Source of the DNA: Candidatus Palauibacter sp.
Lineage (GTDB): Bacteria; Gemmatimonadota; Gemmatimonadetes; Palauibacterales; Palauibacteraceae
Reading direction: 5' to 3'
Assembly: GCF_965216145.1 (NCBI RefSeq)
Contig: NZ_OZ244149.1
Span: 1,013,411 to 1,077,410, forward strand
Length of the DNA: 64,000 nt
The notes under the pieces are model-generated. The model did not search any database. It was not told where the DNA came from and worked only from the letters and a program-made list of their open reading frames with translations. Each line of letters opens with the position of its first letter. The stretch's first letter is position 1. A program made the position numbers and the translations under genes. Below, piece by piece: positions 46,071 through 64,000 of this stretch.

Positions 46071-46083
46071 CCTACCCTTCCTT

Positions 46084-46157
46084 AAAAAACGGGAGCCAGT
46101 TGCGGCACCAAGGATCAAGAAGACCCTCTCCGGGCACCGCTCCCGGCTCCAGTTTTG
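46084..46157 (-). ncRNA. Putative DUF3800-associated structured small RNA, convergent with the gene
   Basis: Three stacked helices that pair fully only on the minus strand (G-U pairs), followed by a U6 tract; TTGACA upstream at 46182-46187. Confidence 0.65.
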
Positions 46158-46390
46158 GAACTTCTAAGGGTTCGAGGTTGTTGTCAACCCCTCTCCTCTT
46201 GGCGCGGCTTGGTGTACGAGATAAGGCCGTGGTGGTGTTCTCGGTCTCGTGCTCTTCGATTGAGTCCTGAGGCGAATCGGGGACAGCCGGCTGTGGGCGA
46301 TTCATGCCGGCCTGAGTCTTAGGGTTGAGAAGATCCCCGAACCGGGCCTAGCGAACGCGAAGCAGCCTTCCCAAACGGAGAAGCTGGGGG

Positions 46391-46873
46391 ATGTCACCCA
46401 TGACCGAGAAGATGCCTAGGTTCGACGCCCTCGCGCGACTCGAGCCCGTGGACCTGCGCGACTGCTGGAAGAACGAGGCTACGGACTTCACGCGCTGGCT
46501 CGCACGCGAGGAAAACACCCAACTCCTGGGCGACACGATCGGCGACGAGGCGAACGACGGTCCCGAATACCTGCACATCTCCTTCGACATCGACGTCATG
46601 GATCCGGCTTACACCTCGGGCACGGGGACGCCGGTTCCGGGAGGGCTGACGCCCCGGGAAGTGTTCTACATCGTCCGCGGGCTCTGCTCCGAGAACAACG
46701 TGGTGGGCTTCGACCTCGTCGAACTCAACGCGCTGGTCGACCCGGACTACACGACCGTGCTCAACGCCAAGCAGGTGGTGGACGAGTGCATGACGGGGAT
46801 CGCGCTCAGGAAACTGGGGCTCGGAAACCGGGACTACCTGAGCCCGCTGACGCGCGGGGACGGTCGGCGGTAG
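46391..46873 (+). pseudogene. In-frame chimera: DUF4268-type nuclease N-terminus plus agmatinase C-terminus
   Basis: LEPVDLRDCWKNEATDFTRWLA..LLGDTIG joined to HISFDIDVMDP..GTGTPVPGGLT..GFDLVE. Confidence 0.7.
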
Positions 46874-46936
46874 TCTCCCATCGCGCGCCAGCCTCGGGAG
46901 GACGCCGGTTTTCTCTCGAGAGAGGCATTTCACCGG

Positions 46937-47004
46937 TACGCTGAAAACGCCATATGGGTGAAATTCACTTGATGTTTTTCACCGTAGGCGCTATTTTCAG
47001 CGTA
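46937..47004 (+). promoter_or_regulatory. Inverted-repeat operator overlapping the promoter of the AbiE-like operon
   Basis: TACGCTGAAAA..GGTGAAA / TTTCACC..TTTTCAGCGTA; TTGATG-17 nt-TATTTT ends 6 nt before the ATG. Confidence 0.7.
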
Positions 47005-48110: not shown

Positions 48111-48872
48111 CGGAGCCTCAATCCGCCGGCGACTACGATGACCGGACGACGGCGGCGGTCAAGTCCGTGTTGGTCGAGATCGGCCAGATCCTCGGCAGAC
48201 CTCGGTCTCGACGCCTCCGCCCTGGGCGACGGCGAATACGTTCGACTTGTCGAAGCCCCGCAGACACACGGCTACCAGCAACGGGAGAGTCTGCGGCGTT
48301 TCCAGCTCGTCCGCACCGTACCCTCCACGGACGGCGAACCCGACATCGACGTAGTCGTCGACTTCCTGATGCCGCGCGACGTGAAGATCGCAAAGAATAG
48401 GCCGCCGCTCATCAGCCAGTTCGCCGTCCAGCGTGCCGATGGGGCCGAACTGGCGCTCAGATTCTATCAGATGGTCGCCATCGAAGGAGATATGCCCGAT
48501 GGGGGCAGGAATCTCGTTCGTATCGCCGTTGCGTCGATTCCAGCCCTCCTGGCCATGAAAGGCTACGCCATCGCCAATCGGTTCAAACGCAAGGACGCCT
48601 ATGACATCTACTATTCGATCCGGAATTTTCCGGATGGGATGGACGCACTTGTAGAAGCAACCAGACCTCTTCTTGACGTACCATCGGCACGGCGAGGCTA
48701 CTGTTTGATCGCCGACAAGTTCCGTGACGTCGAAGACTTTGGACCGACGAGCGCCAGGCGGTTCGTGGAGGAAGCCGACCTGCTCGGCGACCGCACCGCG
48801 GATCAATGGCAGCAAGACGCCTTCGGACAGGTTGACGCATGGCTCAGAGAACTGGGCCTGAGGGTTACATGA
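48107..48872 (+). pseudogene. AbiEii-like nucleotidyltransferase toxin with internal deletion/frameshift
   Basis: MTEPQSA..EIGQILG (overlapping start) shifts frame to DLGLD..; the IGG..H.GT.D segment is missing; ALLAMKG..KDAYDI retained. Confidence 0.7.
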
Positions 48873-49156
48873 ACGCCATCAAGACGTTCTGCGACCGTTG
48901 GCAGGTGGAGGAACTGGCGCTGTTCGGGTCGGTGCTGCGCAATGACTTCGGGCCGGACAGCGACATCGACGTACTCGTCCGCTTCCGGGCGGAGCGAACG
49001 CCGGGTCTGTTCGGGATCGCCGGGATGGAGCGGGAACTGGCCGAGTTGCTCGCCCGCAGAGTCGATCTGGTGAACCGCGCCGCGATCGATGGGAGTCGAA
49101 ACTACATTCGCCGGAAGGCGATCCTGGAATCCACGCGGGTCGTTTATGCCCCGTGA
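48869..49156 (+). CDS. Minimal nucleotidyltransferase (MNT antitoxin), copy 1, N-terminally shorter
   Basis: LFGSVLRNDFGPDSDIDVLV, RVDLV. Confidence 0.85.
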   Translation: MNAIKTFCDRWQVEELALFGSVLRNDFGPDSDIDVLVRFRAERTPGLFGIAGMERELAELLARRVDLVNRAAIDGSRNYIRRKAILESTRVVYAP

Positions 49157-49158
49157 CC

Positions 49159-49285
49159 GTTTCTCGAACTAAGAAAATAACCCCGCCCGAGGCCTTTCGG
49201 CGTGTCGGGCGGGGAGCAAGTTTCCTAGTCAGGCGCGTATGCCGGACGTGTACCGAAGGATACAAACTCCCTGCACGGCCATCAA
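49159..49285 (-). ncRNA. Putative small RNA A, copy 1, with promoter
   Basis: TTGATG-17 nt-TATCCT; UACG-loop hairpin; 10-bp stem with GAAA-capped inner helix and U tract; repeated at 55553-55679. Confidence 0.6.
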
Positions 49286-49390
49286 CTCGAATCCCTCGAC
49301 GTGGTCGAGCGGCAGATCGCCGGTCCGGCCATCCATTGAGTCCCTGCTGATCGAGGCCGGGCGCGACTCCGGCAGCCCGGGAATGGACTG

Positions 49391-49822
49391 CTACGCGCGC
49401 AACTTTCTCGATCCGAACCAGACGCCCACGGCCCCGATCAGCGGGTTGAGCCAGTTGAACCATGCCGGGTGGAGGGCGCCCGCGGTCGCCTCCATCATCG
49501 ACACGTCATCGGGGCGCGGTCCCGCCGCCATCTCCACCGGCATCAGGGCCCTCACCACCCCGAGTACGATCACGATGGCGATCAGTATCGTGGCGGCCCT
49601 GGCATCGTGCGCCACCCTGGCACAGACTCGTCCGCCGATGTACGCCGCCACGAGCCCGAGCACGCCCGAGCCGAGTGCCCAGCCGCCGGGTACCTCCCAC
49701 GAACCCGGCTGGAAGGCGCGCGAGGGCCCCACCGTCAGCCACAGAAGCGAGAAGAGTGCGAAGAGCACGGCGGCCATGGCAATGTAGCCGACGATGGCGG
49801 CGAGGATGTTCCTGAGCATCAT
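49391..49822 (-). CDS. Small four-TM membrane protein
   Basis: Four hydrophobic helices; start overlaps the VOC gene stop. Confidence 0.75.
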   Translation of the reverse strand: MMLRNILAAIVGYIAMAAVLFALFSLLWLTVGPSRAFQPGSWEVPGGWALGSGVLGLVAAYIGGRVCARVAHDARAATILIAIVIVLGVVRALMPVEMAAGPRPDDVSMMEATAGALHPAWFNWLNPLIGAVGVWFGSRKLRA

Positions 49823-50220
49823 GTTCCTCCCTGAAGGTTCTCCTCTGAAATCTGGATCAGGTTGCCGCACGAATCGTCGAAAACTGCGACAGTAACACTC
49901 CCGAGGTCTGTTGGCGGCTGCACGAATCACACGCCTTTTGCCGTGAGACGCTCGTGCTCGGCTTCGATGTCATCGACTGCGAAGGAGGCACTGGGGATCC
50001 CGTCCTCCACAAGCGCAGCTTTGAACGGACGGACTGCGGGGTGGCCATCGGGCTCGAGCAGCAACTCCGTCCCCTCGGGAGCTTCCTCGGATACCACGGT
50101 GATCCAGGCGTGCTCTCCCATGGGGATGTTGTGCTTTACCCGAAAGCCGAGCGTCTCTGTGTAGAAACGAAGCGCCTTCTGTTGGTCGTCCACTAAGACG
50201 CTGGTCAGGTGGATTCTCAT
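49819..50220 (-). pseudogene. VOC/glyoxalase family protein with premature TGA
   Basis: VDDQQKALRFYTETLGF..ELLLEP..KGV*FVQPPTDLG..AVFDDSCGNLIQ; the frame continues past the stop at 49927. Confidence 0.8.
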
Positions 50221-50293
50221 TTCCCTACGTCCTCATCCGTTGAGTGTGAAGTGTCCTCGTCTGTCGAGGTGGGCCACCGTTCCCCGATTGCCT

Positions 50294-50629
50294 TCAGCGG
50301 GGCGCCCTCGAACCAGTGGAGCTTCGACCTACCGCATGCCGAGGTGTGACTTGCTCGGCGATCTCGCGACCCGCCTCGATCTCGGCCCGGCGAAGCTGCC
50401 AGGTCTTCTGAAGGTTCAACCAGAGTCGCGGCGTCGTCCCAAAGTACCTGCCCAACCGCAACGCCGTATCGGCGCTCACGCCGCGCTGGCCGTTGAGGAT
50501 CATGGTTACCCGGTTCACCGGCACGCCGAGCGCCTTGGACAGCGCGTTGGCCGACAGCCCGAGTTCGTCGAGTTCCTCGCGCAGGATTTCGCCCGGGTGC
50601 ACCGGCCTCATGCCGTTCCTCGCGTTCAT
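50294..50629 (-). CDS. higA: HigA family antitoxin
   Basis: PVHPGEILREE..LSANALSKAL..TALRLGRYFGTTPRLWLNLQ. Confidence 0.92.
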   Translation of the reverse strand: MNARNGMRPVHPGEILREELDELGLSANALSKALGVPVNRVTMILNGQRGVSADTALRLGRYFGTTPRLWLNLQKTWQLRRAEIEAGREIAEQVTPRHAVGRSSTGSRAPR

Positions 50630-50641
50630 GTCACACGCCTC

Positions 50642-50667
50642 TCAATGGTAAATCCACGATCTCGACC
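50642..50667 (-). pseudogene. 3' stub of higB toxin
   Basis: GTCGAGATCGTGGAT(T)TACCATTGA encodes VEIVDYH* with one extra base, the usual HigB C-terminus just upstream of higA. Confidence 0.65.
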
Positions 50668-50707
50668 GCTGAAAGCGCACTTCGAAGGCTTCCGATGGAT
50701 AGCATAA

Positions 50708-50903
50708 CTCCGCAAGTTGCGTTTTGGGTGAGATTTGACGATGCTCCGAACGTAATTCCTCAGGTCGTCCTCTACTGCACATGGCCTTCGGGCGCAGCAA
50801 GACGCTGAGGTAGGAGCCCCGGGGCCGTTTCGTCCTCGGGGCTCTTGCGTTTAGACGGCCCCGGACCCGAACGCCAGACCCTGCCGCGGGTGACCACCGA
50901 GAC
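50708..50903 (+). ncRNA. Putative small RNA B, copy 1, with promoter and terminator-like hairpin
   Basis: TTGCGT-17 nt-GATGCT; CTCAG/CTGAG-closed hairpin with cUUCGg loop; second long GC stem; repeated at 55672-55866. Confidence 0.6.
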
Positions 50904-51040
50904 GATACCTGCTCATCCCCGTCCGCCATCGTGTCCGCCCGCTTGATGCCTCGCCCGAAACGACCGAGCTTTGGTGTCGACCTCGGCGAGTACGGGCGCT
51001 CGGCGGTCAAGATCGTAGATCTGGCGTAGCGGAGGCTTCA

Positions 51041-51391
51041 GTGCAACCTGGGACAGAAACCGTCGAAGACCAGGAACGGCTGGCGGCGCGGATAGGCGTC
51101 CCCATGAACGTCATCAAGGCGTTCTGCGACCGTTGGCAGGTGGAGGAACTGGCGCTGTTCGGGTCGGTGCTGCGCAATGACTTCGGGCCGGAGAGCGACA
51201 TCGACGTACTGGTCCGCTTCCGGACGGAGCGAACGCCGGGTCTGTTCGGAATCGCCGGGATGGAGCGGGAACTAGCCGAGTTGCTCGCCCGCAGAGTCGA
51301 TCTGGTGAACCGCGCCGGGATCGAGGAAAGCCGAAACTACATTCGCCGGAGGGCGATCCTGGCATCCGCGCGGGTCGTTTATGCCCCGTGA
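51041..51391 (+). CDS. Minimal nucleotidyltransferase (MNT antitoxin), copy 2
   Basis: GSVLRNDFGPESDID; close paralog of 48869-49156. Confidence 0.87.
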   Translation: MQPGTETVEDQERLAARIGVPMNVIKAFCDRWQVEELALFGSVLRNDFGPESDIDVLVRFRTERTPGLFGIAGMERELAELLARRVDLVNRAGIEESRNYIRRRAILASARVVYAP

Positions 51392-51404
51392 GGGCAGGAC
51401 CGCT

Positions 51405-51624
51405 TTCGAAATGCTGGCGGACCAGCGGTTTCGGGAAGCACGTGCAGCCCTTGGGCGAGGCCGCACGCGCCTCGTCCCGGCGCTGACCCCGCTCAGTGAA
51501 GCGGCCCAGACGGCGCGTAAGCCCCTCCCGCCCCACGAACTCTACGACGCGAAGAGCGACCGTGTACACCGGGAACCGGGGCGTGGACGCGCCGCTCGAA
51601 CCGCAAGGGGCCAGCGGTAGGGCT
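51405..51624 (+). pseudogene. Duplicated 3' end of the HTH gene at 58322-59023
   Basis: Near-identical DNA to 58808-59027 (FEMLADQ...ARGQR*). Confidence 0.85.
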
Positions 51625-51667
51625 TGAGTGTGATCCTGCGGGCGTTGTTGAGGAGGCGGCCGGAAGC

Positions 51668-52534
51668 CTAAGCCGAATGCCAGCGAATCGACGCCGAGCC
51701 GGTGTCGGTGGGGAGGATCATCCAACGAGGGGCGATCAAGAGTTCTCCTCCACGCCTGCGGTTGGAGGCCGAGTAGCGGAGAGAATAGGACCTGACCGTC
51801 GCCCACTCCTCGTAGAGCGCTCGCACCTCCGGGCAGTCATCGTACGTCAGGACCCACGGGCTGTCTTTCAGCGTTCGCAGAACCTCGGCGAGCGCCGCGT
51901 GATACGGGGGATCGAGGGCATTCAGGTACAACGTCGGCCCCTTCCCGAAGTACGGCGGATCGATGAAGAAGAACACGCCGTCGCTCGCGAGTCTCTGAAC
52001 GAATTCGATCCCGTCCTGCGCGGACAAACGGATCCGCGCCCCGTGCCGAGCGACTCGTTGGCACCGCTCCACCAGCCCCTTCCGGTTGAACCGGGCATCG
52101 AGACGCCATTTCCCGGCTTGCTCGATCCCGCCGATCGGTCCCCCGTTACGGATGATTCCAGAGCGATTGCAGCGGTTCAGATAGAACGCGGCGAACGCCC
52201 GTTCCAGCCGTGACGCCGACCCCGGATCGCGATAGATCGCACGCTGACGGCGCCACTCGTCCACGGTGAGCGGTACCGTGTGGATCATCTCGGAGAACTG
52301 GTCGGTCTGCTCCAGAACCGCCCACCAGATGTCCGAAACAGCCTCATCGATATCGTTGATGTGGATTGCGGGCGCCTCCTCGCGGAACAACAGAGTCAGC
52401 GCGGCCCCGGCTCCACCCGCGTACGGCTCCGCGAAATCTCGGTCTCGCAATCGATTGGCGACCCGCACGCGATTGAAAAGCCTCGCCATCGCGGACTTCC
52501 CGCCCGGATAACGGAGAGGGCTAGCAGTCCCCAT
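51668..52534 (-). CDS. DNA adenine methylase (D12/Dam-like class)
   Basis: SPLRYPGGK, EPYAGGAG, INDID, YLNR, IDPPY. Confidence 0.92.
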   Translation of the reverse strand: MGTASPLRYPGGKSAMARLFNRVRVANRLRDRDFAEPYAGGAGAALTLLFREEAPAIHINDIDEAVSDIWWAVLEQTDQFSEMIHTVPLTVDEWRRQRAIYRDPGSASRLERAFAAFYLNRCNRSGIIRNGGPIGGIEQAGKWRLDARFNRKGLVERCQRVARHGARIRLSAQDGIEFVQRLASDGVFFFIDPPYFGKGPTLYLNALDPPYHAALAEVLRTLKDSPWVLTYDDCPEVRALYEEWATVRSYSLRYSASNRRRGGELLIAPRWMILPTDTGSASIRWHSA

Positions 52535-53462
52535 GACGCCCCGACTTCAGGGAGGTTTCGATCCAGTCCTGGAGACGCTGTTCAAGCGGATCATCCAACG
52601 TTCGCCCACACAGTGAGGAGATGCGGCAACGGTCGAGCAGGAGTTGATCGACCCTGGCATCGTCCGCGTCGTCTTCCGACAAGGCCCTTGGCACGAAGAA
52701 AGCCGGAATCGGGTCCACGGCGATCGTTCCGGCGATATTCCTCTTGCACCAGCTTTTCGGCCGCAGTTCGTGCGCCTTCTCCTTCCATCGCCGACCGACC
52801 GCACACTGGCCAAACAGTATCAGCTTCGAGGGTCGCCGATCGGGGAAATCCCTCCACGCCAAAACATCCAGGCCATCATCGTTGGACTGATTCAAGTTCT
52901 TCCGATTCTTGCAGGCCTCTCCTTCGCGCAGGAGATCGACCAGGTGCGTGACAGCGTCACGGAATCCCGCCGGGAGGTCCTGCCGAGGCCATCCGAATAC
53001 CGCAGTCGACTTGCCGTCACCGAGATACCGGCCGGCCGCCGCCGCACTCAATTCCTCGAACAGCTTGTAGACCGGGGTTCCATCGTCGTGGTCGTCCGTG
53101 ATGCCGAGAGATACGAGGAGCTGGAACAGATATGCGGCGGAAGGCTCGTCACGAAGCTGAAGCCCGTCCTGCGTGATTTCAAACGGGTACGAATCGTCGG
53201 GTCCGCAAGCCTGGTCCCGGTGCGAAAGAACTTCCACCCACTCATCGAGACGCCTCTCGAAGGGCTCGATGTCTCGCCACCCCTCCTCCGGCACCCCCTC
53301 TCCGGGCTCCGGGTAGGTCGCAACTGCTTCATCCTCGGACATCGTGAGCCGGAGCTGACGGATCACGTCGGCCCACGCAATGTAGCCGTTGGAAGCCGCC
53401 GCGCAGGCCCATTCGAGAAGGTCGGCGTTCTCCTCGGCCGCCAGGCTTGAGTCTACGATCAA
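52521..53462 (-). CDS. Restriction-endonuclease-like (PD-(D/E)XK) hypothetical protein
   Basis: LFEELS...DDGLDVLAW...FGQCA, an Mrr-like D..QxK variant. Confidence 0.55.
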   Translation of the reverse strand: MIVDSSLAAEENADLLEWACAAASNGYIAWADVIRQLRLTMSEDEAVATYPEPGEGVPEEGWRDIEPFERRLDEWVEVLSHRDQACGPDDSYPFEITQDGLQLRDEPSAAYLFQLLVSLGITDDHDDGTPVYKLFEELSAAAAGRYLGDGKSTAVFGWPRQDLPAGFRDAVTHLVDLLREGEACKNRKNLNQSNDDGLDVLAWRDFPDRRPSKLILFGQCAVGRRWKEKAHELRPKSWCKRNIAGTIAVDPIPAFFVPRALSEDDADDARVDQLLLDRCRISSLCGRTLDDPLEQRLQDWIETSLKSGRHGDC

Positions 53463-54553
53463 GACTCGTCGGACGTCATGAGGGCGTTGAGTGACTCCGC
53501 TTGTCGAAGGAGACTACGCCCCGTCTCCATCAGATCCTCCTCGCCCCTAAACCCGGTCGAAACAAAACGCATGGCTTCCCTGGCGCTTGTTTCGGCCTTC
53601 GTGAGCGCGGTGCGGAACAGGTGAGCGTCGCCGAGCGAAGCGTCCAGCGCCACGGAAAGCGAGTTTCCGCCCTCCAGCAAGTCCACGCCTTTCTGAACCT
53701 CAAGGGCGCGCGCAAGGTGACGAAGGTCCGGGTTCTGGCGACGAACCACTGCCTCGATGCCCTGAGACTGGCTTCCGAAGAGCCACGCCATGAGGTACTG
53801 CAATCTCCGCAGTCGGTCGCCAGGAACGGGGTTCTCGTTTTCCAGCGCCGCGGGGTCAACTCCCAGGTAGTCCCGGATGGACACGTAGCCCAATGCGGTC
53901 CAGAGATGGGAAAAGGGAAATCGTCGGTGCCTGGTGTCGGTCGTATCGAAATCGAACTCGTTCTGCGCCTGTCGAAGGACGACGTATCCTCGGTACAGGC
54001 GCGCGACGGTCTCGTGACGATCTCCAATCCCGGACGCGATTTCGGCGAGACTCAGACCGAAGTTGCGCCGTACATGGAATACGTACTCCGCTTTGGCGAT
54101 GGAGTCCCAAACCTGTGGTCCGTTCACATGTTTGAACCCGACGAAACTCCACAGCTCCTCCCGCGTCGCGTAGATCACAGGGAGTTCCCGGATTGATTCG
54201 AGAACTTCCTCGGACAGTTTCTCGGTAAGCTGGATCCCGAGTCGCTCCCGAAGGCCGGGATCCAGGAGGATCTTGACGGCCGCGAGCCGTCGGTTGCCCT
54301 CGACTACAACCCAACGGTCTCCTTCCTCGGTCGCGAATAGCTCCTCATGGTCCCAAAAGCCGTTCGCGAGGATGGAGTCCACCAACTCGTTGACCGACTT
54401 GTTGCGCCAGAGCCAGCGGAGGATGCCTTCCTGCTGGTCGACAGAAAACGACTCGCCCGCAAGCCGTGGGTTTTCGGGGTCGAAGTACAAGTCGGCCGGA
54501 GCGTGACGAATGACCTCCAAGGCGATCATCCTTTCAAGGAAGGGCCGTGACAC
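53459..54553 (-). CDS. ParB/Srx N-terminal domain protein
   Basis: FDPENPRL, LVDSILANGF, VVVEGNRRLAAVK. Confidence 0.8.
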   Translation of the reverse strand: MSRPFLERMIALEVIRHAPADLYFDPENPRLAGESFSVDQQEGILRWLWRNKSVNELVDSILANGFWDHEELFATEEGDRWVVVEGNRRLAAVKILLDPGLRERLGIQLTEKLSEEVLESIRELPVIYATREELWSFVGFKHVNGPQVWDSIAKAEYVFHVRRNFGLSLAEIASGIGDRHETVARLYRGYVVLRQAQNEFDFDTTDTRHRRFPFSHLWTALGYVSIRDYLGVDPAALENENPVPGDRLRRLQYLMAWLFGSQSQGIEAVVRRQNPDLRHLARALEVQKGVDLLEGGNSLSVALDASLGDAHLFRTALTKAETSAREAMRFVSTGFRGEEDLMETGRSLLRQAESLNALMTSDES

Positions 54554-54941
54554 CAGATGGTGTGTTCAAGATGGACCCTGACATGCTGGTTGCAAAGGTA
54601 TCGGCCCCGGCACCGGGGATGAACGTCCTCGGAGCCTGAGCGGCTGTAACTCAACGGTCCGCCGCGATCTCAACCGTTCGTCATCAAGCTGGGGCCGAGT
54701 GCCGTCACGGGCGTATGGGTTACGGTTCATGTTGCGGTGCCGTCGGCTTCTGGATTCGGGAGGGGATTCGTCCCTCATCTTCGGCAGGCAGCGCAAGAAG
54801 CACGGCTCCGCTTCGGGGGCCCCCATCACCCCCATCGCGGCTCCGGTGATCCGGCTGCCGTGCCGTTGGAGGATCGCCTCGATCGAATCGCTGGCGACGA
54901 AGTCGGAGTTGTGCTGCGGGGCAACCACGGTGTCGCTTTCG

Positions 54942-55551
54942 TCATCCCATCCTCCCGCAGAGCCGTTATCCGTTCACTCAGCTCGTCCAAGAACTCCGAC
55001 AGCGTCAGCTCGAGCGCACTCGCGAACTTGCTCGCCGCATCGACCGTGAGGCGTGTCTCCTCCTTCTCCAATCGCCGGACGTGCCTCTCCGACAGCCCCG
55101 GGATCTCCGTCTGCTTCAGCTGCCGATCATGCCTCATGTCACGGAGGGCCCGCGACACGTTCTCCATCTCATACCGACGGATTTCCACGTCAGCCAGATG
55201 CATGGGATCCGCGGCCTGCAACATCTGAGAACGGACCCATGTGCACATCCCGATCGGGCCAATGCAGGTAGGAACCGGATGAATCGATCACGAACCGGCG
55301 GACCACGGCCGACTCGAACCGCCTGACCTTGGGAAGCCTTCCGACCGGGAACGTCCCCCAGGACCACCACCAGAGAGTCCTTGAGGACATATGCGTCGAG
55401 GATGCCCTCCCACGGGGCCGGTCGCTTGAGCGCGATGACCAGCCGCTTCACAACGGAAGGGTCCCGGCACACCTGCAGCCGCTGATCCGGCTTGTGGAAG
55501 TCGAAGCATCGAGGCGAGGCGAAGCACCGCCTGCTCCGGCACGTCCAGCAC
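54942..55551 (-). pseudogene. Degenerate second copy of the DUF2442-HTH gene (42231-43073)
   Basis: Same sequence from VLDVPEQAVL onward, with indels and the 5' end missing. Confidence 0.85.
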
Positions 55552-55552
55552 G

Positions 55553-55679
55553 GTTTCTCGAATTAAAAAAATAACCCCGCCCGAGGCCTCTCGGCGTGTC
55601 GGGCGGGGAGCAAGTTTCTTGGTCAAGCGCGTACGCCGGACGTATGCTGAAAGTATTCCAACTTCCCTGTGCTCCACAA
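55553..55679 (-). ncRNA. Putative small RNA A, copy 2
   Basis: TTGTGG-18 nt-TACTTT; UACG hairpin; GAGA-capped long stem and U7 tract. Confidence 0.6.
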
Positions 55680-55680
55680 G

Positions 55681-55866
55681 TTGCGTTATGGGTGGGCCCT
55701 GACGACACTTCATGTGTACGTCTCAGGTCGTCCTCTACTGCACAGAACCTTCGGGCGCAGCAAGACGCTGAGATAGGAGCCCCGGGGCCGTTTCGTCCTC
55801 GGGGCTCTTGGGTTAAGAGGGCCCCGGACCCGAACACCAGACCCTGCCACGGGTGACCACCGAGAC
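55681..55866 (+). ncRNA. Putative small RNA B, copy 2
   Basis: TTGCGT-17 nt-GACACT; same two hairpins as 50759-50844. Confidence 0.6.
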
Positions 55867-55911
55867 TCCGGTCGACATGGGGGTGGAGTTCCGCAGGGCG
55901 GGTCGATCGAG

Positions 55912-56000
55912 TTGGCCAACGTGGCGGGACTCGCGGATGTTTCCGGCAAGGAGAACGTCGGTGTCATCCGTTTCGACGCGTACTACGATGCGGAAGGACG
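55912..56000 (+). pseudogene. Agmatinase/ureohydrolase internal fragment
   Basis: NVAGLADVSGKENVGVIRFDAYYD resembles the degenerate VGVIHFDAHxD metal-binding motif. Confidence 0.55.
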
Positions 56001-56213
56001 CCCGGCGGTAGCAGCCGTGACGACCTCACGGCATCGACATGGCAGTTCGCGAGTGAGAATACCACAGCCCGGCCCGATCTCGACGACCAGATCGCTTCGT
56101 TTGACGGGAGCCTGAGCGATCAGGATAGCCGCCAGCGGACAACCCGTAGTTGATATTTGGGAGATAATTCACGCATGTTGTCAACCATTGTTTACGCGAA
56201 AGGAGGGGACGGC

Positions 56214-57293
56214 ATGTTTGGACGACGGCTACGGCTGGCCCGTAAACGCGCCGGCCTTTCCATGCGGGCGCTGGCCGAACGGATGGATCCGAAGATCACC
56301 GCTCAGGCCATCAGCAAGTACGAGGTGGGGAAGATGATGCCGTCTTCGGCCGTCCTGGTCGGTCTCGGGCAGGCTCTCGACGTCTCGCTGGACTTCCTCA
56401 TGAGTTCCCAGGTCGAGGTCCTCGACGGCCTCGAGTTCCGGAAGCACTCCAGCACCTCAGCCCGGGATCGCGCCAAGGCCGAAGCCGTGCTGATCGACAA
56501 CCTCGAACGATATCTGACCATCGAGGAAGTCCTCGGCATTCCACCTGCGAGCGACCGTTTTGAAGGCCGCCGGTATGACAGCGTTGCCGATGTCGAAGAG
56601 ATCGACGACAGAGCCGATGAACTTCGCAACGCGTGGGACCTCGGCCTGGATCCGGTGTCCAGCCTGTGCGCCCTCCTCGAGGAGAAGGGCATTAAGGTGA
56701 TCGAAGACGATCTCCCCGAGCGCATCAACGGGCTGGCCTGCCGAGTCCTGCGAGAGGGCAAGCCGGTCGCCGACGCCGTCCTCGTATCGAGTCGCACCAA
56801 CGTCGAGCGGAAACGATCCACCCTGGCCCACGAACTCGCGCACAGGATCATCCGTTCCACCGGCAACCCGGCCATCAAGCTGGAAGCGGCCATGAACCGT
56901 TTCGCAGGCGCCTTCCTTGTCCCGGGCCGACATCTCATTGAGGAAGCTGGGGAAGGCCGCCGCCGCGTCACCTATTTTGAGATCGTCCGCCTCAAACACA
57001 TGTACGGCGTGTCAGCGGCGGCCATGCTGGTACGCCTCGGTCAAGTCGGCGTGCTGCCTCGTGCCGCGGTCCAGCGCGCGTTTAGAACCTTCGCCCGCTC
57101 CTGGCGCAAGTCGGAACCAGAACCCATTGATGGCAACCAGGGGTTCGCGGCGTTCGAGAAGCCCCAGCGTTTCACGGGCCTTGTCTGGCGCGCCGTCGGC
57201 GAAGAGCTGATCTCGCCGGTCCGGGCGGCCACTCTCCTCAATGAATCCCTCGACGCGGTCGAGCAACAGATCACCGGTCCGATCCAGCAGTGA
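56214..57293 (+). CDS. XRE HTH plus ImmA/IrrE metallopeptidase
   Basis: FGRRLRLARKRAGLS HTH; ERKRSTLAHELAH..EAAMNRFAGAFLVP; RBS AGGAGG. Confidence 0.9.
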   Translation: MFGRRLRLARKRAGLSMRALAERMDPKITAQAISKYEVGKMMPSSAVLVGLGQALDVSLDFLMSSQVEVLDGLEFRKHSSTSARDRAKAEAVLIDNLERYLTIEEVLGIPPASDRFEGRRYDSVADVEEIDDRADELRNAWDLGLDPVSSLCALLEEKGIKVIEDDLPERINGLACRVLREGKPVADAVLVSSRTNVERKRSTLAHELAHRIIRSTGNPAIKLEAAMNRFAGAFLVPGRHLIEEAGEGRRRVTYFEIVRLKHMYGVSAAAMLVRLGQVGVLPRAAVQRAFRTFARSWRKSEPEPIDGNQGFAAFEKPQRFTGLVWRAVGEELISPVRAATLLNESLDAVEQQITGPIQQ

Positions 57294-57345
57294 CACGTGA
57301 CATCGTCAACGACGCTTCCTGCCTGATCGACCTCCGCAAATTGGC
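57290..57345 (+). pseudogene. 5' stub of PIN-domain partner gene
   Basis: Overlapping GTGA start, IVNDASCLIDLRK, then unrelated sequence. Confidence 0.55.
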
Positions 57346-57430
57346 TCGCCGTTCTACGAGCTGCTTGAACCCGCTCGCGCCGGAACACAAGGTCATCCAG
57401 GCAACCCTTCGAGCCCATTTCACACTCTAC

Positions 57431-57459
57431 TTCACAAATGGGACACCGTGCAGTATGAT
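57431..57459 (+). promoter_or_regulatory. Sigma70-like promoter of the TIGR04255 module
   Basis: TTCACA-17 nt-TATGAT. Confidence 0.6.
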
Positions 57460-57512
57460 TCTCCAGCGAGCCACCGCATAGCCACGCCGTTCATCGACAA
57501 ACGAGCCATCAT

Positions 57513-58325
57513 GTGAATGCTGCCGACACGCCTCTGACCGGGCCACCCCCGCCGGAGGTACCGCTGACTGATCCGCCGCTCGTGCGGGTCATCGCCCAGG
57601 TGCGCTTTCCGCTCATCGCGTCGTTGGAGAAGCGGGACTTCATCGCGTCGTTTCAGGAGGCCATTCGGGAGTTCTACCCGGTGCTGCGTCCAGAGGAGGA
57701 ACGCAGCGTCGTCCTGGGCCCACAGGGAGCGGTGGACACCACACGCTCAAACACCCTATGGCGCTTCAACGAAGCGAGAGGGGCATGGCGTGTCACGTTG
57801 GCACCCGGCTTCCTCGCGCTGGAGACCACGAAATACACGAGCCGTGAAGACTTCATGGAGCGCTTGAGGCTGGTCCTGGAAGCACTCAAGGAGCACGTCG
57901 ATCCGAAGGTACTGGATCGCCTCGGCGTACGTTACATCGATCGCGTGTCCGGGCAAAACCTGAGCGCTCTTCCCCAGCTCGTTCGACCGGAAGTGGCGGG
58001 CATCCTAGGATCCCCACTCGCCGCACGTGCTCAGCACGCCGTCTCGCAAAACATGTTCATTCTGCCCGGGGACGCGGGTCAGATTACCGCCCGCTGGGGA
58101 CTGCTGGCACCGCGAAGCACGATTGACCCTGGGGCGCTGGACGCTATCGACGAGGCCAGCTGGATCCTTGATACCGACGCCTTCCAGTCATTTCAGACAG
58201 GCAGCCGGCGGCTCGATGTCGACTCTGCGGTCGAGCAGGCGCGAGGCTTCGCCGAACGCATCTATAGCATCTTCCGCTGGGCGGTAACGAATGAGTTTCT
58301 GCGACGGTACGGAGGTGACCCATGA
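57513..58325 (+). CDS. TIGR04255 family protein
   Basis: PPLVRVIAQVRF, LETTKY, RLGVRYIDR, ILDTD, IFRWAVT. Confidence 0.82.
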   Translation: MNAADTPLTGPPPPEVPLTDPPLVRVIAQVRFPLIASLEKRDFIASFQEAIREFYPVLRPEEERSVVLGPQGAVDTTRSNTLWRFNEARGAWRVTLAPGFLALETTKYTSREDFMERLRLVLEALKEHVDPKVLDRLGVRYIDRVSGQNLSALPQLVRPEVAGILGSPLAARAQHAVSQNMFILPGDAGQITARWGLLAPRSTIDPGALDAIDEASWILDTDAFQSFQTGSRRLDVDSAVEQARGFAERIYSIFRWAVTNEFLRRYGGDP

Positions 58326-59023
58326 ACCTTGAATCCCTGCTAGGCGAGTCGGCGGTCAGTGCCAGAACGACATCCTTTTCCGGTCGCGCTGGCATCCGGG
58401 ATCGCGCCTCGCTGTCGGTGATCATGGTAAGCGGCGCGTTGTCGATCGCCGGCACGTCGTCCGCAGAGCCCACGACAATCTGGGGGCCACCGTACGTACA
58501 CGATTCCGATACGACCGCTGGCGGGCCAAGCCGCGACGCGGTGGCGACACAGATGGAGATCGAGACTGAGGCCACCCGTAAGGCCGTCTCCGAGCTGCGT
58601 CGAATCTCTGGTCTGACTTGGCAGCAGCTCGCCGGGCTGTTCGGCGTGTCGCGTCGCAGCGTCCACTTCTGGGCCAGCGGGAAACCGCTGAACGCCAGCA
58701 ACCACCAGCGGCTCATGCGTGTGCTGGATGTTGTCCGGGATGCCGACCGTGGCACGGCACGCGGCACGCGTGCGGCTCTGCTCGATGCCCGTGCGGGTAC
58801 GACCCCGTTCGAAATGTTGGCGGATCAGCAGTTTCGGGAAGCACGTGCAGCCCTTGGGCGAGGCCGCACGCGCCTCGTCCCGGCGCTGACCCCGCTCAGT
58901 GCAGCGGCGCAGACGGCGCGTAAGCCCCTCCCGCCCGACGAGCTCTACGACGCGAAGAGCGACCGTGTACACCAGGAACCGGGGCGTGCACGCGCCGCTC
59001 GAACCGCAAGGGGCCAGCGGTAG
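58322..59023 (+). CDS. HTH (XRE-like) protein
   Basis: ELRRISGLTWQQLAGLFGVSRRSVHFWASG; start overlaps the previous stop. Confidence 0.8.
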   Translation: MNLESLLGESAVSARTTSFSGRAGIRDRASLSVIMVSGALSIAGTSSAEPTTIWGPPYVHDSDTTAGGPSRDAVATQMEIETEATRKAVSELRRISGLTWQQLAGLFGVSRRSVHFWASGKPLNASNHQRLMRVLDVVRDADRGTARGTRAALLDARAGTTPFEMLADQQFREARAALGRGRTRLVPALTPLSAAAQTARKPLPPDELYDAKSDRVHQEPGRARAARTARGQR

Positions 59024-59030
59024 GGCGCGG

Positions 59031-59869
59031 TTGAAAGTGCCGGCGGTGAGCAGGTCGACGAGAGAATCGCGACTTGGCGTCAGGGCGACTGCGTCGTCGA
59101 GGACGACTGGTTTCTGTATCGGACAAGCGCGGAAAACCCGCTGACCGACGCCGGCAAAGCGGCGGTCGTCGAAGGAGCCGAGAACGCCGAGTCGTCCGTG
59201 CGCGGCTTCGCGGTCCTCACGCAGACTTGCGACCTCGTCCGGCACTGTGCGGATCGCCCCTTCGTCGAGGTTGGCCCGCTGGTCGAGGTGGATGATCAGG
59301 TGCTCCGCGAGATCGAGCGGGGGCGAAGGCCAAACTACGGCTTTATCCCGGGAGTGGCCGACCGCCGCCTCGTGGCCGACCTCGACCGAGTGATGACGGT
59401 CGAGAAGGCGGTCGCGGCAGTTTGGGAGCGGATCGAGGGATGCCGGACGGACGATGAGACGCGTCGGTTCTCCCTCGCACTGGCCCGGAAGCGAGCGAGG
59501 ACGGCGTTCCCCGACGACTTTGTCGCGTTCGCCAGGCCGTTGATGGACCGGATGTCGGAGAGACACGACAGGCAGAGCGATGAGGGGCGTGTCCTCCGCT
59601 CGCTCCGCGAAGTCCGAGTTAGAGCGGCCCCATCCTGGGATGCCGACGCCGTGGAATTGATGTTCTGGTTCATCCGGAATGACGACGAGCCAGCATTCGA
59701 AACCGAAGACTGGGAGCACTGCCTGACGGCTTTGCCCCAGCCGCGGTCGACATCCGGACGCTTCGTCCGTGTGGATGGCGTGGTCCTGACTCTGTATGAC
59801 CTGACCGCCCGCGACTACGTCGAGAGCGACCCGCTCGATCTGGACCACCTGTCGACGCGGCGACAGTAA
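59031..59869 (+). pseudogene. Third gene of the TIGR04255 module (RQGD/TQTCD protein), apparent frameshift near the 5' end
   Basis: TTG-KVPAV is one base out of frame with EQVDERIATWRQGD..VLTQTCDLV..ARKRARTAFPDDF. Confidence 0.6.
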
Positions 59870-59941
59870 GGGACGGATCGGGTACCGCAGCCCCATGACG
59901 CGATCCTAACGCGCTTATCACGGAATCACCGGCAACTCGAT

Positions 59942-60917
59942 ATGGGAAGGGTAGCGCGTGATGCCTACGCACGGGTACCCAGCCGAAGAGAAACTCACGA
60001 CGAGATCATGACCACGAGACGACCTGCACGTGTAATGGCTGCCCTGCTGCACGAAGTGCTGCAAGCTTCGTCGATGTTGCTGTTCCTGCTATCGGGCATC
60101 GCAACGAGTCGGCGGAGACAATACGTCCAGCCAGGTGTGGCACGCCCCTTAGACCTCCCTGGACTACCCGACCTCTGCATCTCGCCGTCCATCGTCAACG
60201 TGCCCGATGACGATCTGTATGGGGCGGGCGGGGCTGCGGCTCAGATGGCGTACAAGGGGTGGATTGCCGAGCTGTACGGGCTCTGGGAACACCGCTACCG
60301 CCCGGAGCTGCAGGCCTCGCTTGGCGAGGACGCGATTCCCCCGGAAATGGACGCTCTCGGCGACTTGCGCGAAATCCGGAACGACCTTCTTCACAGCGGC
60401 ACGGCAAGCGCGGCGCGATGCCAGAAGTGCTCGACTCTCAAGTGGTTCAAACCCGGCGAACGCATGGTTTTCGACACCACCCATGTACTCGATTTTCTCA
60501 ACCATCGGTGTCTTGGCCTGGCGCTTCGCTCACGACGACAGCGGGTCATGCTCGCTCGAAACATACCGAGACCGCAACGAACTCCTGGCGTGGTCCCCAC
60601 CACCAAGGCTCGTATCGGTGCGAACACACAACGACGGCAAGGAGGCCGACCCCACGTACAAGGCCGTAACGGTCGTTTTTGGCAACGGGGTGTTCGCCAA
60701 TGTGCCGCTCCAGCTAGATGAGCAGCGTCGATGGACTGCCCTTGGCGACGCGCAAATCAGCAAGGATGGTCGCCTGCTGCTGTTTCAAGACGGCACTACC
60801 CTTGATTGTGACCGGTTATACAGGTCGGCTGTTATCGCGCAGGAGCCACGCAGACCCCACGATGGTCGCCCGCGCCTGCCTGTTGCTGGTCCTTCCATCA
60901 GGTTTAGACGCCGGTAG
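59942..60917 (+). pseudogene. Frameshifted hypothetical protein with HEPN-like RxxxxH motif
   Basis: DLREIRNDLLH; the plausible protein switches frame at about 60503. Confidence 0.5.
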
Positions 60918-61187
60918 CCCCCTCGCAAGGTCGGCGAGTGCTCGACGGACGTGGCCTCGGAGGTCAGGTTTCTACGCCCGGCGAGCCTAACAGCGCTTGA
61001 CGCGGAACCTTACGGGTGGGCCGGTCGATCGCCACAGAAGCCAACCCGCCAGGTGCCGGCGATAGCGCTGCGATAGCGTGGAGTCCATCGTCCGACTGCA
61101 CGATGGGTCTGCAAGGAGCGTCGTGCCGGCGGATCGACGGCGTGCGTCGGCCTCATGGTCGGGCCGCTCCCTACCTGTATGCGCCGA

Positions 61188-62600
61188 TCAACGCTGGTGG
61201 ACCTCGAACTTCTTCAGCCAGAGTTCACCGGTGCCACTCCTCGCCTCATTACCCAGCTCTATGGCGGTAAAATAGTGGTGGGCCGGCACATATCCCTTGT
61301 CCACCAAGTACTGGAAGAAGGTCAGTACGTTGACTGAACCGATGTACTGATCTTCGTGCCTCAGGAATGCGATAAAATCGGCGACGTATCTCGTCCCTCC
61401 TGCGGAGTCGTGCCAAACTCGATCCGGCCAGACGTACAGATCCCACAGGGCGCCGTCGAGTCTCACGGGTCCGATATAGAACTCCGGCCTGGCGGGTCTG
61501 GAGTCGTGATCCATCCAGATCATTATCTCGTGCGAGATGCCTGATTCGCTGGGTGGGTTGTTTCGAGTGATCCAGAAGTCGAACGACAGGTTGTATCGTC
61601 CCTCAGCCGCGAGATACGCCTCGTAGTCGACTTCAAGACGCTCAACGGCGCCAATCTGCCTCGGCATCTCCGAGGTCGTAGAGGTGCGACTCCAAGGCTT
61701 GCGGCCGTAGACTACCTCTGGGTAGCCCTTCACGCGGCCCTCTCTTACCGGCCAGCGCCATCGCCAACCGTACTCCTCCTTCCCGCCCGACCCGGGAAGT
61801 GTTCGTTTCATGATACACTGTTCGTAATCCGTCGTGTTCTGTCTGTTCCAGACATTGTTGGAGTAGCGGTAGTCTCCCACAAACCACTCTTCCCAGCCCC
61901 TGCAAGCCTCGGCGTCCGGCGATACCGGTGTCGGATCCGAGGGCGGAGGCGTCGGATCGAACGGGGCGGGGCCGGGAATCGTCACTTGAGCTGTGCCCGG
62001 CACGGAATTCGCGACCGCCGTGATGGTGGCGCTCCCCACGCCGGCGGCCCGCACAACACCGACGGAGTCGACGCTCGCGATCATCGTGTCATTCGACTCC
62101 CACGTGAAAGTGACATCCGGTACCCGGTGCTGGTTCGCGTCGATCGCTGTCGCCGACAACCGTAGCGTGTCTTCCAGAGCGACGAGCGTGTCCGCCGCCG
62201 GCGAGACCGTTACCTCTGCAACCCGCTGCTGGACTGTGATTGCCGCGCTCGCGCGGGCTTCCGCCACGGATGCCGTGACCATCGCCGTCCCGTTCCCGGC
62301 CGCCGTCACGAGACCCGACGCATCCACCGTGGCGACCGAGGCGCTGTCACTCGACCAAGTGACCGAGGCGCCCGGCATCGCCTGTCCATTCTGGTCGCGC
62401 ACCGCAGCCCGCAGCCGGACGGTCTCGCCGAAGGCCGTCAACGCCGCTGTGGCTGGCGTCACCGTCACGGTCGTCGGGCGGGGCACGTCGGGTGTGGGTG
62501 TCGGCTCCGTGGCCTCACCCCCGCAGGCCTGGACTCCAAGCGCCGCCGCCAACCACGTCGCTCCAAGGATCCAGATGCGGTCTGTTCGACACCCTACCAC
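61188..62600 (-). CDS. Lipoprotein with two Ig-like (Big_2) domains and a C-terminal GH12-like glycoside hydrolase
   Basis: Lipobox VQAC; two WxS....A.VD..G.V.A repeats; NNVWN, GYPE, HEIMIW, ELGNE. Confidence 0.8.
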   Translation of the reverse strand: MVGCRTDRIWILGATWLAAALGVQACGGEATEPTPTPDVPRPTTVTVTPATAALTAFGETVRLRAAVRDQNGQAMPGASVTWSSDSASVATVDASGLVTAAGNGTAMVTASVAEARASAAITVQQRVAEVTVSPAADTLVALEDTLRLSATAIDANQHRVPDVTFTWESNDTMIASVDSVGVVRAAGVGSATITAVANSVPGTAQVTIPGPAPFDPTPPPSDPTPVSPDAEACRGWEEWFVGDYRYSNNVWNRQNTTDYEQCIMKRTLPGSGGKEEYGWRWRWPVREGRVKGYPEVVYGRKPWSRTSTTSEMPRQIGAVERLEVDYEAYLAAEGRYNLSFDFWITRNNPPSESGISHEIMIWMDHDSRPARPEFYIGPVRLDGALWDLYVWPDRVWHDSAGGTRYVADFIAFLRHEDQYIGSVNVLTFFQYLVDKGYVPAHHYFTAIELGNEARSGTGELWLKKFEVHQR

Positions 62601-62779
62601 AACCGTACCTCCCTCCCTCGTGGTAATTGGCTCCGGTTGCGCTGGCCATGCGTGACGGTCGGAGCTCGACGTCCGGCCGATCTCGACGCCCGTCACCGAC
62701 CGAGCCGTCTCATGCCGCGCACAGCGACCATGGATCCACCTTGGCAGTGCCCATGACGCTGATGACTCAGATCGGGGGG

Positions 62780-64000
62780 TCACGTATTCCACGGTGACGC
62801 CGTCAGCAGCAGGCGGCCGCGGAAGCCCGGCCGGGGCGGGTTCTTGAGGCCCTTCTCGAAGCCGAGCGGGATCTCGAAGCGCATCCGGCCTTGCTCGTCC
62901 GGACCGGCGAGCGCGACGCGCTTGGCGGCGTGGCCGCTGCCGACGCGGGTTCGGAGACCGGACCGGACCGTGGTCTTGCCGCCGTGACGCCAGCGGAGGT
63001 GCAGGGTGACCGTCTCGTTCAGGAGCGTCTCGCCCTCGAAGTGCTCGTCTAACCAGAACTTCTCGTCGACCTCGAAGAGCGGGACCTCAATCGCGATCTC
63101 GATCGCGAAGGCGAGTGCCGTGTCGCTCGTGCTCGTCTTGGCGCTCTGGAGGAGGAAACCGGAGAAGAGGTAGGCGGGCTTCCTCTCCTCGACGAGGTCC
63201 TCGTACCGCTTGCGGATGGCCGATTCATTCCGGACTCGGCGTTCGCTCAGGTAGCACCCGCCGCCGCGCACCTTGGCGCACGTATCGATGTTGTACCGGG
63301 CCCGGATCTTCTTGCCCTCAGCCTTCTTATTCCGGACCGCCCGCGGCAGCGTGATCTCGTCCACGGCCAGAAGGGCGTCGATCCGCACCTGCCCGAAAAG
63401 GAACCGGCGGAGGTTCTGGTATCCCTCCTCGGAGTTGACGATCCCGAACGGCCCGCTGTGGCTCCGGTGGGCGAATGCGCGCGGCGCCTCGTCAACGACC
63501 GCATTCTTCATCATCACGAGCCCGTCGCTGGTGGGGCCGGCGGCGCGCTTCGACAGGCCGAGAAACGCGCCGTAATCCTTGTAGTCCGTTCCTACGAAGC
63601 AGAAGAAGCGGTTCGGAGAGAAGGCGTCGTCGAGGGAGGTAACGCGGGCGCCCGGCGGCAGCTTGAGGTACTTCCGCATGTAGGCGCGGTTGAAGTTGCG
63701 GACGTGCATCTTGTCGAGCGCGCCCAGGTCCGGCGCGTTCACGCCCATCATCTCGATACCGCCGTGCGGCGTGGCATACGTGAAGACCTTGTCCACGTAG
63801 TGTTCCTCGCCGCGTGCCACGTTCTGCAGATACGTGCGGCAGATCAGCCCGCCCATGGAGTGCGCCACGAGATAGACCTTGAACTTCTCAAGTTCCTCGT
63901 CGTCTCCCAGGCACACCTGCTCACGGACGCGGAGGATGAACTTAGCGAGGTCCTCGGCGTAGCTCTCGATCGGGTCCTTCTCGCCGTCGCCGAAAGACTT
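62780..64000 (-). CDS. Alpha/beta hydrolase (PGAP1/lipase-like); 5' end outside window
   Basis: LVAHSMGGL nucleophile elbow, ATPHGG, SDGLV, RSH; frame open to the window end. Confidence 0.8.
   Translation of the reverse strand, partial: KSFGDGEKDPIESYAEDLAKFILRVREQVCLGDDEELEKFKVYLVAHSMGGLICRTYLQNVARGEEHYVDKVFTYATPHGGIEMMGVNAPDLGALDKMHVRNFNRAYMRKYLKLPPGARVTSLDDAFSPNRFFCFVGTDYKDYGAFLGLSKRAAGPTSDGLVMMKNAVVDEAPRAFAHRSHSGPFGIVNSEEGYQNLRRFLFGQVRIDALLAVDEITLPRAVRNKKAEGKKIRARYNIDTCAKVRGGGCYLSERRVRNESAIRKRYEDLVEERKPAYLFSGFLLQSAKTSTSDTALAFAIEIAIEVPLFEVDEKFWLDEHFEGETLLNETVTLHLRWRHGGKTTVRSGLRTRVGSGHAAKRVALAGPDEQGRMRFEIPLGFEKGLKNPPRPGFRGRLLLTASPWNT

Follow-up and report, generated by a model that had tools for sequence, protein, structure and literature searches.

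The closest described relatives of the locus studied here are AbiF proteins that are paired with a non-coding RNA (ncRNA). RCd22 of the Clostridioides difficile phage phi027 neutralises AbiFCd in cis as well as in trans through direct binding (PMC12373285), and in PbAbiF-AbiFr there is one AbiFr per PbAbiF monomer, with a single-stranded bulge of AbiFr blocking the RNase (PMC12737573). Both papers, which were available to us in part, propose AbiF-ncRNA pairs as ancestors of CRISPR-Cas13, and in the available portions the AbiF RNAs described so far are solely co-transcribed leaders with the abiF motif. PD-T4-5, a plasmid-borne distant AbiF/D relative in Escherichia coli, provides abortive infection (Abi)-type defence (PMC9519451, likewise available in part). 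Here we analyzed positions 55550–55866 of a 64,000-nt window, by which we mean the whole stretch of Candidatus Palauibacter sp. (phylum Gemmatimonadota) DNA that was examined. These positions consist of two back-to-back non-coding units, unit A on the left (- strand) and unit B on the right (+ strand). Comparative analysis identifies unit B as the gene for a structured RNA family without an Rfam match, and its partner in related genomes is an AbiF-like HEPN protein, here referred to as the toxin.

The locus resembles RCd22-AbiFCd and PbAbiF-AbiFr in its HEPN partner of the Abi_2 fold with an R-x4-H motif, and also in an RNA of about 100 nt that has an intrinsic terminator, is encoded immediately upstream of the toxin and is stably linked to it. 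However, the published AbiF RNAs are co-transcribed leaders that share a promoter with the toxin and have a leaky terminator before it (PMC12373285, as far as the available part describes them), while B occupies the opposite strand and has a putative promoter of its own. The published RNAs also carry the abiF motif RF03085, to which B has no match, and have two repeated motifs where B forms one composite hairpin. Among profiles, PD-T4-5 matches the partner protein best (E ~1e-15), and it is likewise AbiF/D-related. It was reported as a single protein gene, and the available part of PMC9519451 does not mention an RNA partner, whereas the Gemmatimonadota toxin adjoins B. Type III toxin-antitoxin (TA) systems, namely ToxIN, CptIN and TenpIN, are similar in combining an RNase toxin with an RNA antitoxin, with activation thought to follow transcription shut-off. 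However, their antitoxins are tandem repeats that share a transcript with the toxin, which processes them, while B is a single unit without internal repeats and the toxin family is unrelated. The initial annotation of this DNA had put the stretch forward as something undescribed; since the system represents a variant form of the AbiF-ncRNA pairs already published, it is not wholly undescribed. What we infer to be new is an AbiF-associated RNA class without the abiF motif, in a divergent layout where RNA and toxin gene stand back-to-back and the RNA is served by a promoter of its own.

Two back-to-back non-coding units

The motif CCACAA-G-TTGCGT was read in the sequence at 55674–55686. When the complete genome sequence (4,317,876 bp) was searched with blastn, 55550–55669 of unit A paired with 49156–49273 (86.7% identity over 120 nt) and 55672–55866 of unit B with 50708–50903 (87.2% identity over 196 nt), and no third copy of either unit was found in this genome. 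The same two pairs are present in the repeat listing of the window as families D9 and D6, and they agree with the recurrences given in the initial annotation, at 49159–49285 for the left unit and at 50708–50903 for the right one. Each unit consists of two hairpins, with minimum free energy z-scores of -2.2 and -4.3 for the copies of B and of -3.7 and -4.2 for the copies of A, and both units bear out the earlier description, being compact, non-coding and bounded by promoter and terminator.

Predicted open reading frames (ORFs) overlap 55550–55866 in the mechanical ORF listing. No Pfam match was obtained for the ORF at 55288–55713 (-), which overlaps the stretch, or for the one at 55853–56011 (+), which starts at its right-hand end, and alignments of related copies show that they differ through indels of 1–2 nt; the stretch was thus rightly said to contain no credible ORF. 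A coding reading was dropped, six-frame translations of both units being without a conserved ORF. The Rfam search by cmscan, which had been suggested in the initial annotation, gave no match at E <=1 across 44000–64000 and so none for either unit. When 341 nt at the stretch were searched at E <=10, five weak matches appeared, the best of them with 17.8 bits against a gathering threshold of 45. An integron attC site and a retron were also considered and dropped: R'/R'' boxes were not seen on reading the sequence, and there was no reverse transcriptase among the ORFs scanned.

Structure and conservation of RNA B

RNA B is a structured RNA of about 100 nt. Copy 2 was placed at 55713–55816 (+) by a covariance model (116.5 bits, E 5e-23), its fold, inverted repeat I1 and the consensus structure, and copy 1 at 50749–50853 (+) by the same model (125 bits, E 6e-25) and its fold (z-score -4.26). 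The RNA comprises a two-part helix P1 around an invariant internal loop, in which CCUCUA faces CAA, and a hairpin P2 with a UUCG loop, and its 3' end is a 14-bp GC-rich terminator hairpin (55777–55807 in copy 2) followed by a U-rich tail. The conserved core stops at about 55814, and 55815–55866 is common to a subset of the copies only. Upstream of the RNA lies a putative promoter, which in copy 2 would occupy 55681–55709 (+) with TTGCGT (55681–55686), a 17-nt spacer and GACACT (55704–55709), and which in copy 1 would consist of TTGCGT (50717–50722) and GATGCT (50740–50745) on the same strand. Under relaxed scoring, a TTGCGT/G-17-GATACT-like pair was among the top three + strand sites at each of the 15 loci where the neighbouring gene is intact; at 10 of them it ranked first.

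Copies of B were collected by a DNA search of 61 related genomes (core at query positions 120–262), where genomes of the genus often held more than one copy, and by scanning a single genome of each species for a 20-nt motif, which gave 38 loci. Pooled with the earlier loci, these made 59 copies, of which 41, from Candidatus Palauibacter and further Gemmatimonadota, are distinct. Across the 41 distinct copies the RNA body has a mean identity of 88%, compared with 64% for the interval between the -35 box and the first helix, in agreement with the divergent spacers and retained stems noted in the initial annotation. The alignment of these copies also indicates the strand. The RNAalifold energy was -41.2 kcal/mol on the + strand versus -22.7 kcal/mol on the - strand. 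Of the 1230 cells that a common set of 30 pairs makes up in the alignment, 1219 were canonical when read on the + strand versus 1122 on the - strand, with 103 and 6 G-U cells, respectively. Because the G-U and RNAalifold asymmetries favour the + strand, we assign RNA B to it, so that RNA and toxin gene lie on opposite strands.

Within the genus, double changes occur at four pairs, and 99.1% of the cells are paired versus 37–47% in slid controls. We further aligned 18 sequences with MAFFT (10 from Palauibacter, three from another family and all five diverged ones, picked from about 53 available). Both sides had changed at 13 of 27 pairs, compared with 4.6 ± 1.4 in shuffles, of which none in 500 reached 13, and with 4–10 in slid controls. 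Covariation, another check suggested in the initial annotation, is hence above the shuffled level in the 18-sequence alignment, though double changes are few within the genus.

The AbiF-like partner protein

In related genomes B faces, head-to-head, a gene for a protein of 236–237 aa, whose start codon is about 56 nt from the first helix of B. The GGAG ribosome-binding site of this gene sits in a short palindrome that overlaps the -35 box of B. All three partner proteins tested matched the PADLOC model PD-T4-5, with E values from 1e-15 to 4e-15, and phmmer with the partner protein retrieved 3050 cluster representatives at E <=0.001. In an alignment of 62 family sequences, E52, R56, N57, R175, N176 and H180 are invariant, the last three belonging to the HEPN R-x4-H motif, and 47 of the 62 members match Pfam Abi_2.

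Structural comparison pointed in the same direction. Searched against PDB, the family profile had 8vz6_A, an 'Abi family protein', as its best match (E 0.0026), while phmmer with the single partner protein against PDB returned noise only. The AlphaFold2 model of the partner (pLDDT 96.3, pTM 0.91) was aligned by VIA-align to 8vz6_A, which is the PbAbiF dimer bound to its ncRNA, with Z 12.3 and an rmsd of 3.5 over 202 residues; the next entry reached Z 4.0. The 8vz6 chain has 297–300 residues according to PDB tables, whereas the Gemmatimonadota partner has 237 aa, is 14% identical to it in the structural alignment, and is absent in the window. On the strength of this predicted fold and the motif, the partner is an AbiF-like (Abi_2/PD-T4-5-type) HEPN protein.

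Linkage of B to the toxin gene and wider distribution

The initial annotation regarded the units as protein-independent, which for the origin of B is contradicted by the relatives, where the AbiF-like HEPN gene lies head-to-head with it. By comparison of coordinates in 36 genomes of the genus, all eight full-length toxin genes adjoin B, and the head-to-head arrangement holds at every locus. Fifteen genus genomes contain 22 full-length matches to B, of which 14 are without an intact toxin gene; toxin-antitoxin pairs typically show an asymmetry of this sort. Next to the 41 distinct copies of B, the toxin gene is full-length at 16, truncated at nine and undetected by tblastn at 16; one of the last is copy 1 of the window, which still has the first 13 toxin codons. 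The genes 3' of B comprise an arginase, a beta-propeller-like and a CitMHS transporter gene in relatives, and MNT and RmrA-like genes in the window. Since the downstream genes vary, B is not the leader of a fixed gene, a role that the initial annotation had considered.

A covariance model of B, derived from the 41-copy alignment, found it in 14 of 35 other genomes of the genus besides the window's own, and in a search of the order with strict filters B appeared only in the genus, bar one marginal match at E 0.0096. The toxin family, in a toxin-first search, is present in 23 of 401 genomes of the phylum. We then ran the model with filters off over 21 toxin-homologue loci from other Gemmatimonadota families. 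In 12 of them, B or a B-like RNA (E <=3e-4) lies adjacent to the start of the toxin gene and divergent from it, and five of these 12 RNAs are clearly diverged (26–78 bits). Only this toxin-first route revealed relatives of B in other families. A rough scan of 15 toxin-homologue loci, B-bearing ones included, showed a hairpin of dG <=-23 with a T-rich tail on the divergent strand at 11 loci; on the strand of the toxin gene, the same scan gave a strong hairpin at three loci, two of which mirror a hairpin on the divergent strand. The pattern of B had no match in viral contigs. In metagenome contigs seven loci match it, of which two (L166 and L167; here and below, L and G denote our serial numbers for loci and genomes) are genuine on reading, and no toxin match was found in the DNA examined.

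Among distant AbiF-like paralogues in other Gemmatimonadota, the upstream regions could not be aligned to B. At L138, L144, L157 and L158 a strong divergent-strand hairpin with a T-rich tail lies at most 230 nt from the start codon of such a paralogue.

Loss of the toxin gene and orphan copies of B

The toxin gene is absent from the window's own genome, in which neither the protein nor the PD-T4-5 model gives a match; the same model matches two of 14 control genomes. Traces of the gene are nevertheless present beside both copies of B. Next to copy 1, a 24-codon ORF at 50631–50705 (-) is a remnant of the AbiF-like gene, with its first 13 residues being the N-terminus of the 237-aa toxin and its stop 1 nt before the start of higA at 50629. 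Because this remnant abuts higA, the higA-VOC-membrane operon occupies the former position of the toxin gene. Copy 2 retains the 5' untranslated region (UTR) of the toxin gene up to GGAG only, joined to unit A; this remnant, including the GGAG ribosome-binding site, lies at 55672–55680 (-) and was delimited by the 41-copy alignment and by breakpoints against G010 and G013. The initial annotation took the hexamer CCACAA for the -35 box on the left; it is complementary to the ribosome-binding region of the lost toxin gene (TTGTGGAG). In the orthologous copy of G013, 24 toxin codons are retained, compared with 13 in copy 1 of the window and none in copy 2, and at the G010 locus a 567-nt segment stands in place of the 121-nt unit A of this genome.

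The only other twin of A and B that was found occurs in G011 and G020, with 78% identity to that of the window and an A-B junction that differs from it by 8 nt. Compared with the intact toxin-B-CitMHS locus of G008, the G011 twin is 95% identical from the toxin start region rightwards and rearranged leftwards. The twin, presented as a twin small-RNA cassette in the initial annotation, looks like the outcome of replacement or deletion of the toxin gene rather than a designed pair, arising where A takes the place of that gene, and replacement by A has probably happened more than once. We regard both B copies in the window as probable orphan AbiF-type RNA antitoxin genes with promoter and terminator intact. 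The island around them may have grown at an original toxin-B-arginase locus, to judge from the gene order in relatives.

Separately, the higA-VOC-membrane operon (higA at 50294–50629, -) may now be under the former promoter of the toxin gene. The idea of a degenerate higB located upstream of higA was tested and then dropped.

Proposed function of B and alternative explanations

The analysis establishes the RNA family with its strand and structure, as well as the linkage of this RNA to the toxin, the toxin fold and the loss of the toxin. On this footing we propose, with a probability of roughly 65%, that B is the dedicated RNA partner of an AbiF-like HEPN ribonuclease whose gene has gone from this genome. 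Transcription of B, its binding to the protein, its antitoxin action and the present-day role of the orphan copies are what we infer by analogy. The RNA's own promoter, some 15 nt away from the toxin start codon, would supply RNA B in excess, and RNA B would bind the toxin dimer and block the RNase site, with the invariant CCUCUA/CAA internal loop as the likely point of contact. When infection halts host transcription, RNA B would decay, the toxin would be freed and the infection would abort. The initial annotation had thought of stand-alone RNA antitoxins. This idea suits B well, which in this genome is the orphan of an RNA-toxin pair.

Several points weigh against the proposed partnership. 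The four sequencing runs that contain the stretch belong to a single study, and none of them is catalogued as RNA. The antitoxin function rests on linkage and analogy, because the strand of B is opposite to that in the published arrangement, and the abiF motif RF03085 is not among the weak Rfam matches to B even at E <=10. B is nearly invariant in the genus, and the covariation signal comes mostly from the five diverged sequences. Foldseek ranks 8vz6_A first at E 0.54, with nothing at E <=0.001. A strict consensus sigma70 scan found no promoter-like site on either strand of the stretch; of the divergent sigma70-like promoters in the initial annotation, it can be upheld that the pair of B ranks high under relaxed scoring, although the sites are weak. 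Because no toxin promoter was found, an antisense toxin mRNA overlapping B may also exist. Finally, the promoter or the terminator is lost in three of 15 B copies without toxin trace (L053, L042 and L055), and in a genome without the toxin the two B copies may be doing nothing.

It is possible, though we are doubtful, that both units are functionless scars, left by toxin-gene loss and island rearrangement and still awaiting decay. The damaged orphan copies elsewhere fit this explanation, as do the absence of the toxin gene from the genome, the shrinking of its remnants from G013 through copy 1 to copy 2 and the mosaic of duplicated pieces that makes up the island. However, conservation of the RNA body is only slightly lower in copies without toxin trace (mean identity 85.9%) than in copies beside intact toxins (89.1%), while the promoter interval is far less conserved (56.9% and 69.3%, respectively). 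Moreover, both copies of the window have kept promoter boxes and terminator, and their covariance scores (125 and 116.5 bits) match those of copies beside intact toxins (105–123 bits).

An unlikely alternative is that B regulates the transcription or the mRNA of the toxin, through promoter competition or as a type I-like antisense RNA to the toxin 5' UTR. The geometry of the locus would suit such regulation: the promoter boxes of B fall within the 55 nt that separate B from the toxin start codon, the palindrome over the toxin ribosome-binding site overlaps the -35 box, and a separate toxin promoter was not found, there being no consistent - strand site at the loci scored. But the RNA body, loops included, is far better conserved than the promoter, which protein contact explains better than interference, and orphan copies of B persist where no toxin mRNA is present as a target. 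In addition, those relatives of the toxin that have been solved or tested bind their own ncRNA directly, according to the available parts of PMC12373285 and PMC12737573. We thus retain the dedicated RNA partner as the preferred reading of B.

Unit A as a promoter and terminator module

Read from its sequence, unit A is a portable module of about 125 bp, in which a sigma70-like promoter is coupled to a two-hairpin terminator that is reused widely. The putative promoter of copy 2 at 55652–55679 (-) would consist of TTGTGG (complement of 55674–55679), a 16-nt spacer and AATACT (complement of 55652–55657). The RNA, predicted at about 85 nt and placed at 55562–55645 (-) by its fold, a terminator-like site on the - strand, inverted repeat I3 and a 7-copy alignment, comprises a small UACG-capped hairpin, followed by a GC stem of 10 bp, enclosing an inner hairpin with a GNRA cap (55575–55608), and by a U-run. 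Copy 1 at 49166–49285 (-) has TTGATG (complement of 49280–49285), TATCCT (complement of 49257–49262), the small hairpin, the terminator hairpin at 49181–49214 and a U-run. Elsewhere the boxes are TTGATG-17-TATCCT in G013, as in copy 1, and TTGACG-17-TAGCCT in G011 and G020. In the seven alignable copies of A, the small hairpin is capped by UACG or UUCG and has one covarying pair (GC in four, GU in one and AU in two), and the terminator hairpin is invariant. The left edge of copy 2 is the breakpoint, at 55551/55552, of a 5'-truncated copy (54886–55551, -) of the DUF2442/HTH-like gene at 42231–43073, which was recognized by repeat families D2, D8, D5 and D10, the sequence and Pfam.

Two other kinds of gene likewise end in the 3' two-thirds of A, namely a TonB-dependent receptor gene (G011 and G024) and a membrane-protein gene (G017). 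Unit A had been described as an RNA unit of its own; most of it is an ordinary terminator module that closes other genes in relatives. The terminator hairpin alone is present in 16 copies (L073–L088) in 12 of the 36 genomes of the genus. Unit A may represent a gene for a small RNA, the orphaned partner of an NYN RNase, or simply a scar.

The second of these, with the twin as two stocked RNA antitoxins, we consider distinctly improbable. In its favour, the A hairpin lies in G032 and G003 between a good sigma70-type promoter and a gene for an NYN protein of 205–208 aa (PF01936, E 1e-12), NYN remnants are found 3' of the hairpin in G013 and G033, and all four NYN matches in the 36 genus genomes follow the hairpin, which is itself widespread in the genus. 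Yet the intact NYN genes after it number only two (L080, 856–1482, -; L076, 1562–2179, +), and a leader hairpin with a U-run may be a plain attenuator. The same module, as mentioned, terminates quite different genes; its hairpin, being invariant, provides no covariation, and the small 5' hairpin provides a single covarying pair in seven copies.

That the units are MITE or IS ends, or the 5' leader or riboswitch of a downstream gene, as their repetition inside a transposase-bearing island and their sharp borders might suggest, can practically be dismissed, since there are only two copies of each in 4.32 Mb, no direct repeats >=10 nt within 55530–55890 and no inverted repeats at the unit ends (those present are internal hairpins and one internal 14-nt pair with 79% match), the borders coincide with promoter and terminator, and the genes 3' of B vary.

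The surrounding defence island

The surrounding 15 kb form a mosaic defence/TA island with an AbiE pair, the higA-VOC-membrane operon and several duplicated segments. A PD-Lambda-5-like pair (methyltransferase E 1e-96, partner E 2e-19) and an RmrA-like Xre-M78 gene (E 2e-41), assigned by family matches, flank the twin; their coordinates are 51668–52534 (-), 53459–54553 (-) and 56157–57293 (+). The ORF at 57513–58325, without a family match, could be a RosmerTA toxin. Two MNT nucleotidyltransferase genes at 48839–49156 (+) and 51041–51391 (+) match PADLOC PDC-S09 and share 95% identity across 289 nt. After the second comes a short ORF at 51381–51620, of which there is another copy at 58788–59026. 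At 46391–46873 (+) there is a C-terminal 160-aa fragment of an arginase-family gene, whose full-length form lies directly 3' of B in L010 and L007.

Further to the left, 45040–45154 contains a 23-bp unit repeated in tandem, in five or more copies of which the later ones are degenerate. Long inverted arms at 39250–39623 and 44654–45027, which are 87–94% complementary, enclose about 5 kb including a DDE transposase gene (40583–42055), and a 300-nt direct repeat at 99% identity is found at 35897–36196 and 40581–40880. The inverted arms and the direct repeat are signs of IS activity in the island.

Implications for AbiF-type systems

As a speculation that we hold to be rather unlikely, orphan B, and perhaps A, may be retained in the defence island as solo RNA antitoxins that act in trans against AbiF-like (and NYN) toxins on mobile elements, in the manner of anti-addiction, or may buffer toxins exchanged in a dense sponge-symbiont community. 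On this speculation, there would more broadly be an AbiF-like clade across Gemmatimonadota with a divergent antitoxin RNA and fully overlapping back-to-back promoters. To our knowledge, such a circuit has not been described for RNA-antitoxin systems.

If the dedicated RNA partner is the right reading of B, a second RNA class, unrelated in sequence and on the opposite strand, would widen the range of RNA solutions for toxins of the AbiF fold, and 'single-gene' systems of the PD-T4-5 type would gain a candidate hidden RNA component. The series of toxin loss, from intact genes through 24 and 13 codons to none, would then allow the persistence of solo RNA antitoxins in defence islands to be studied.

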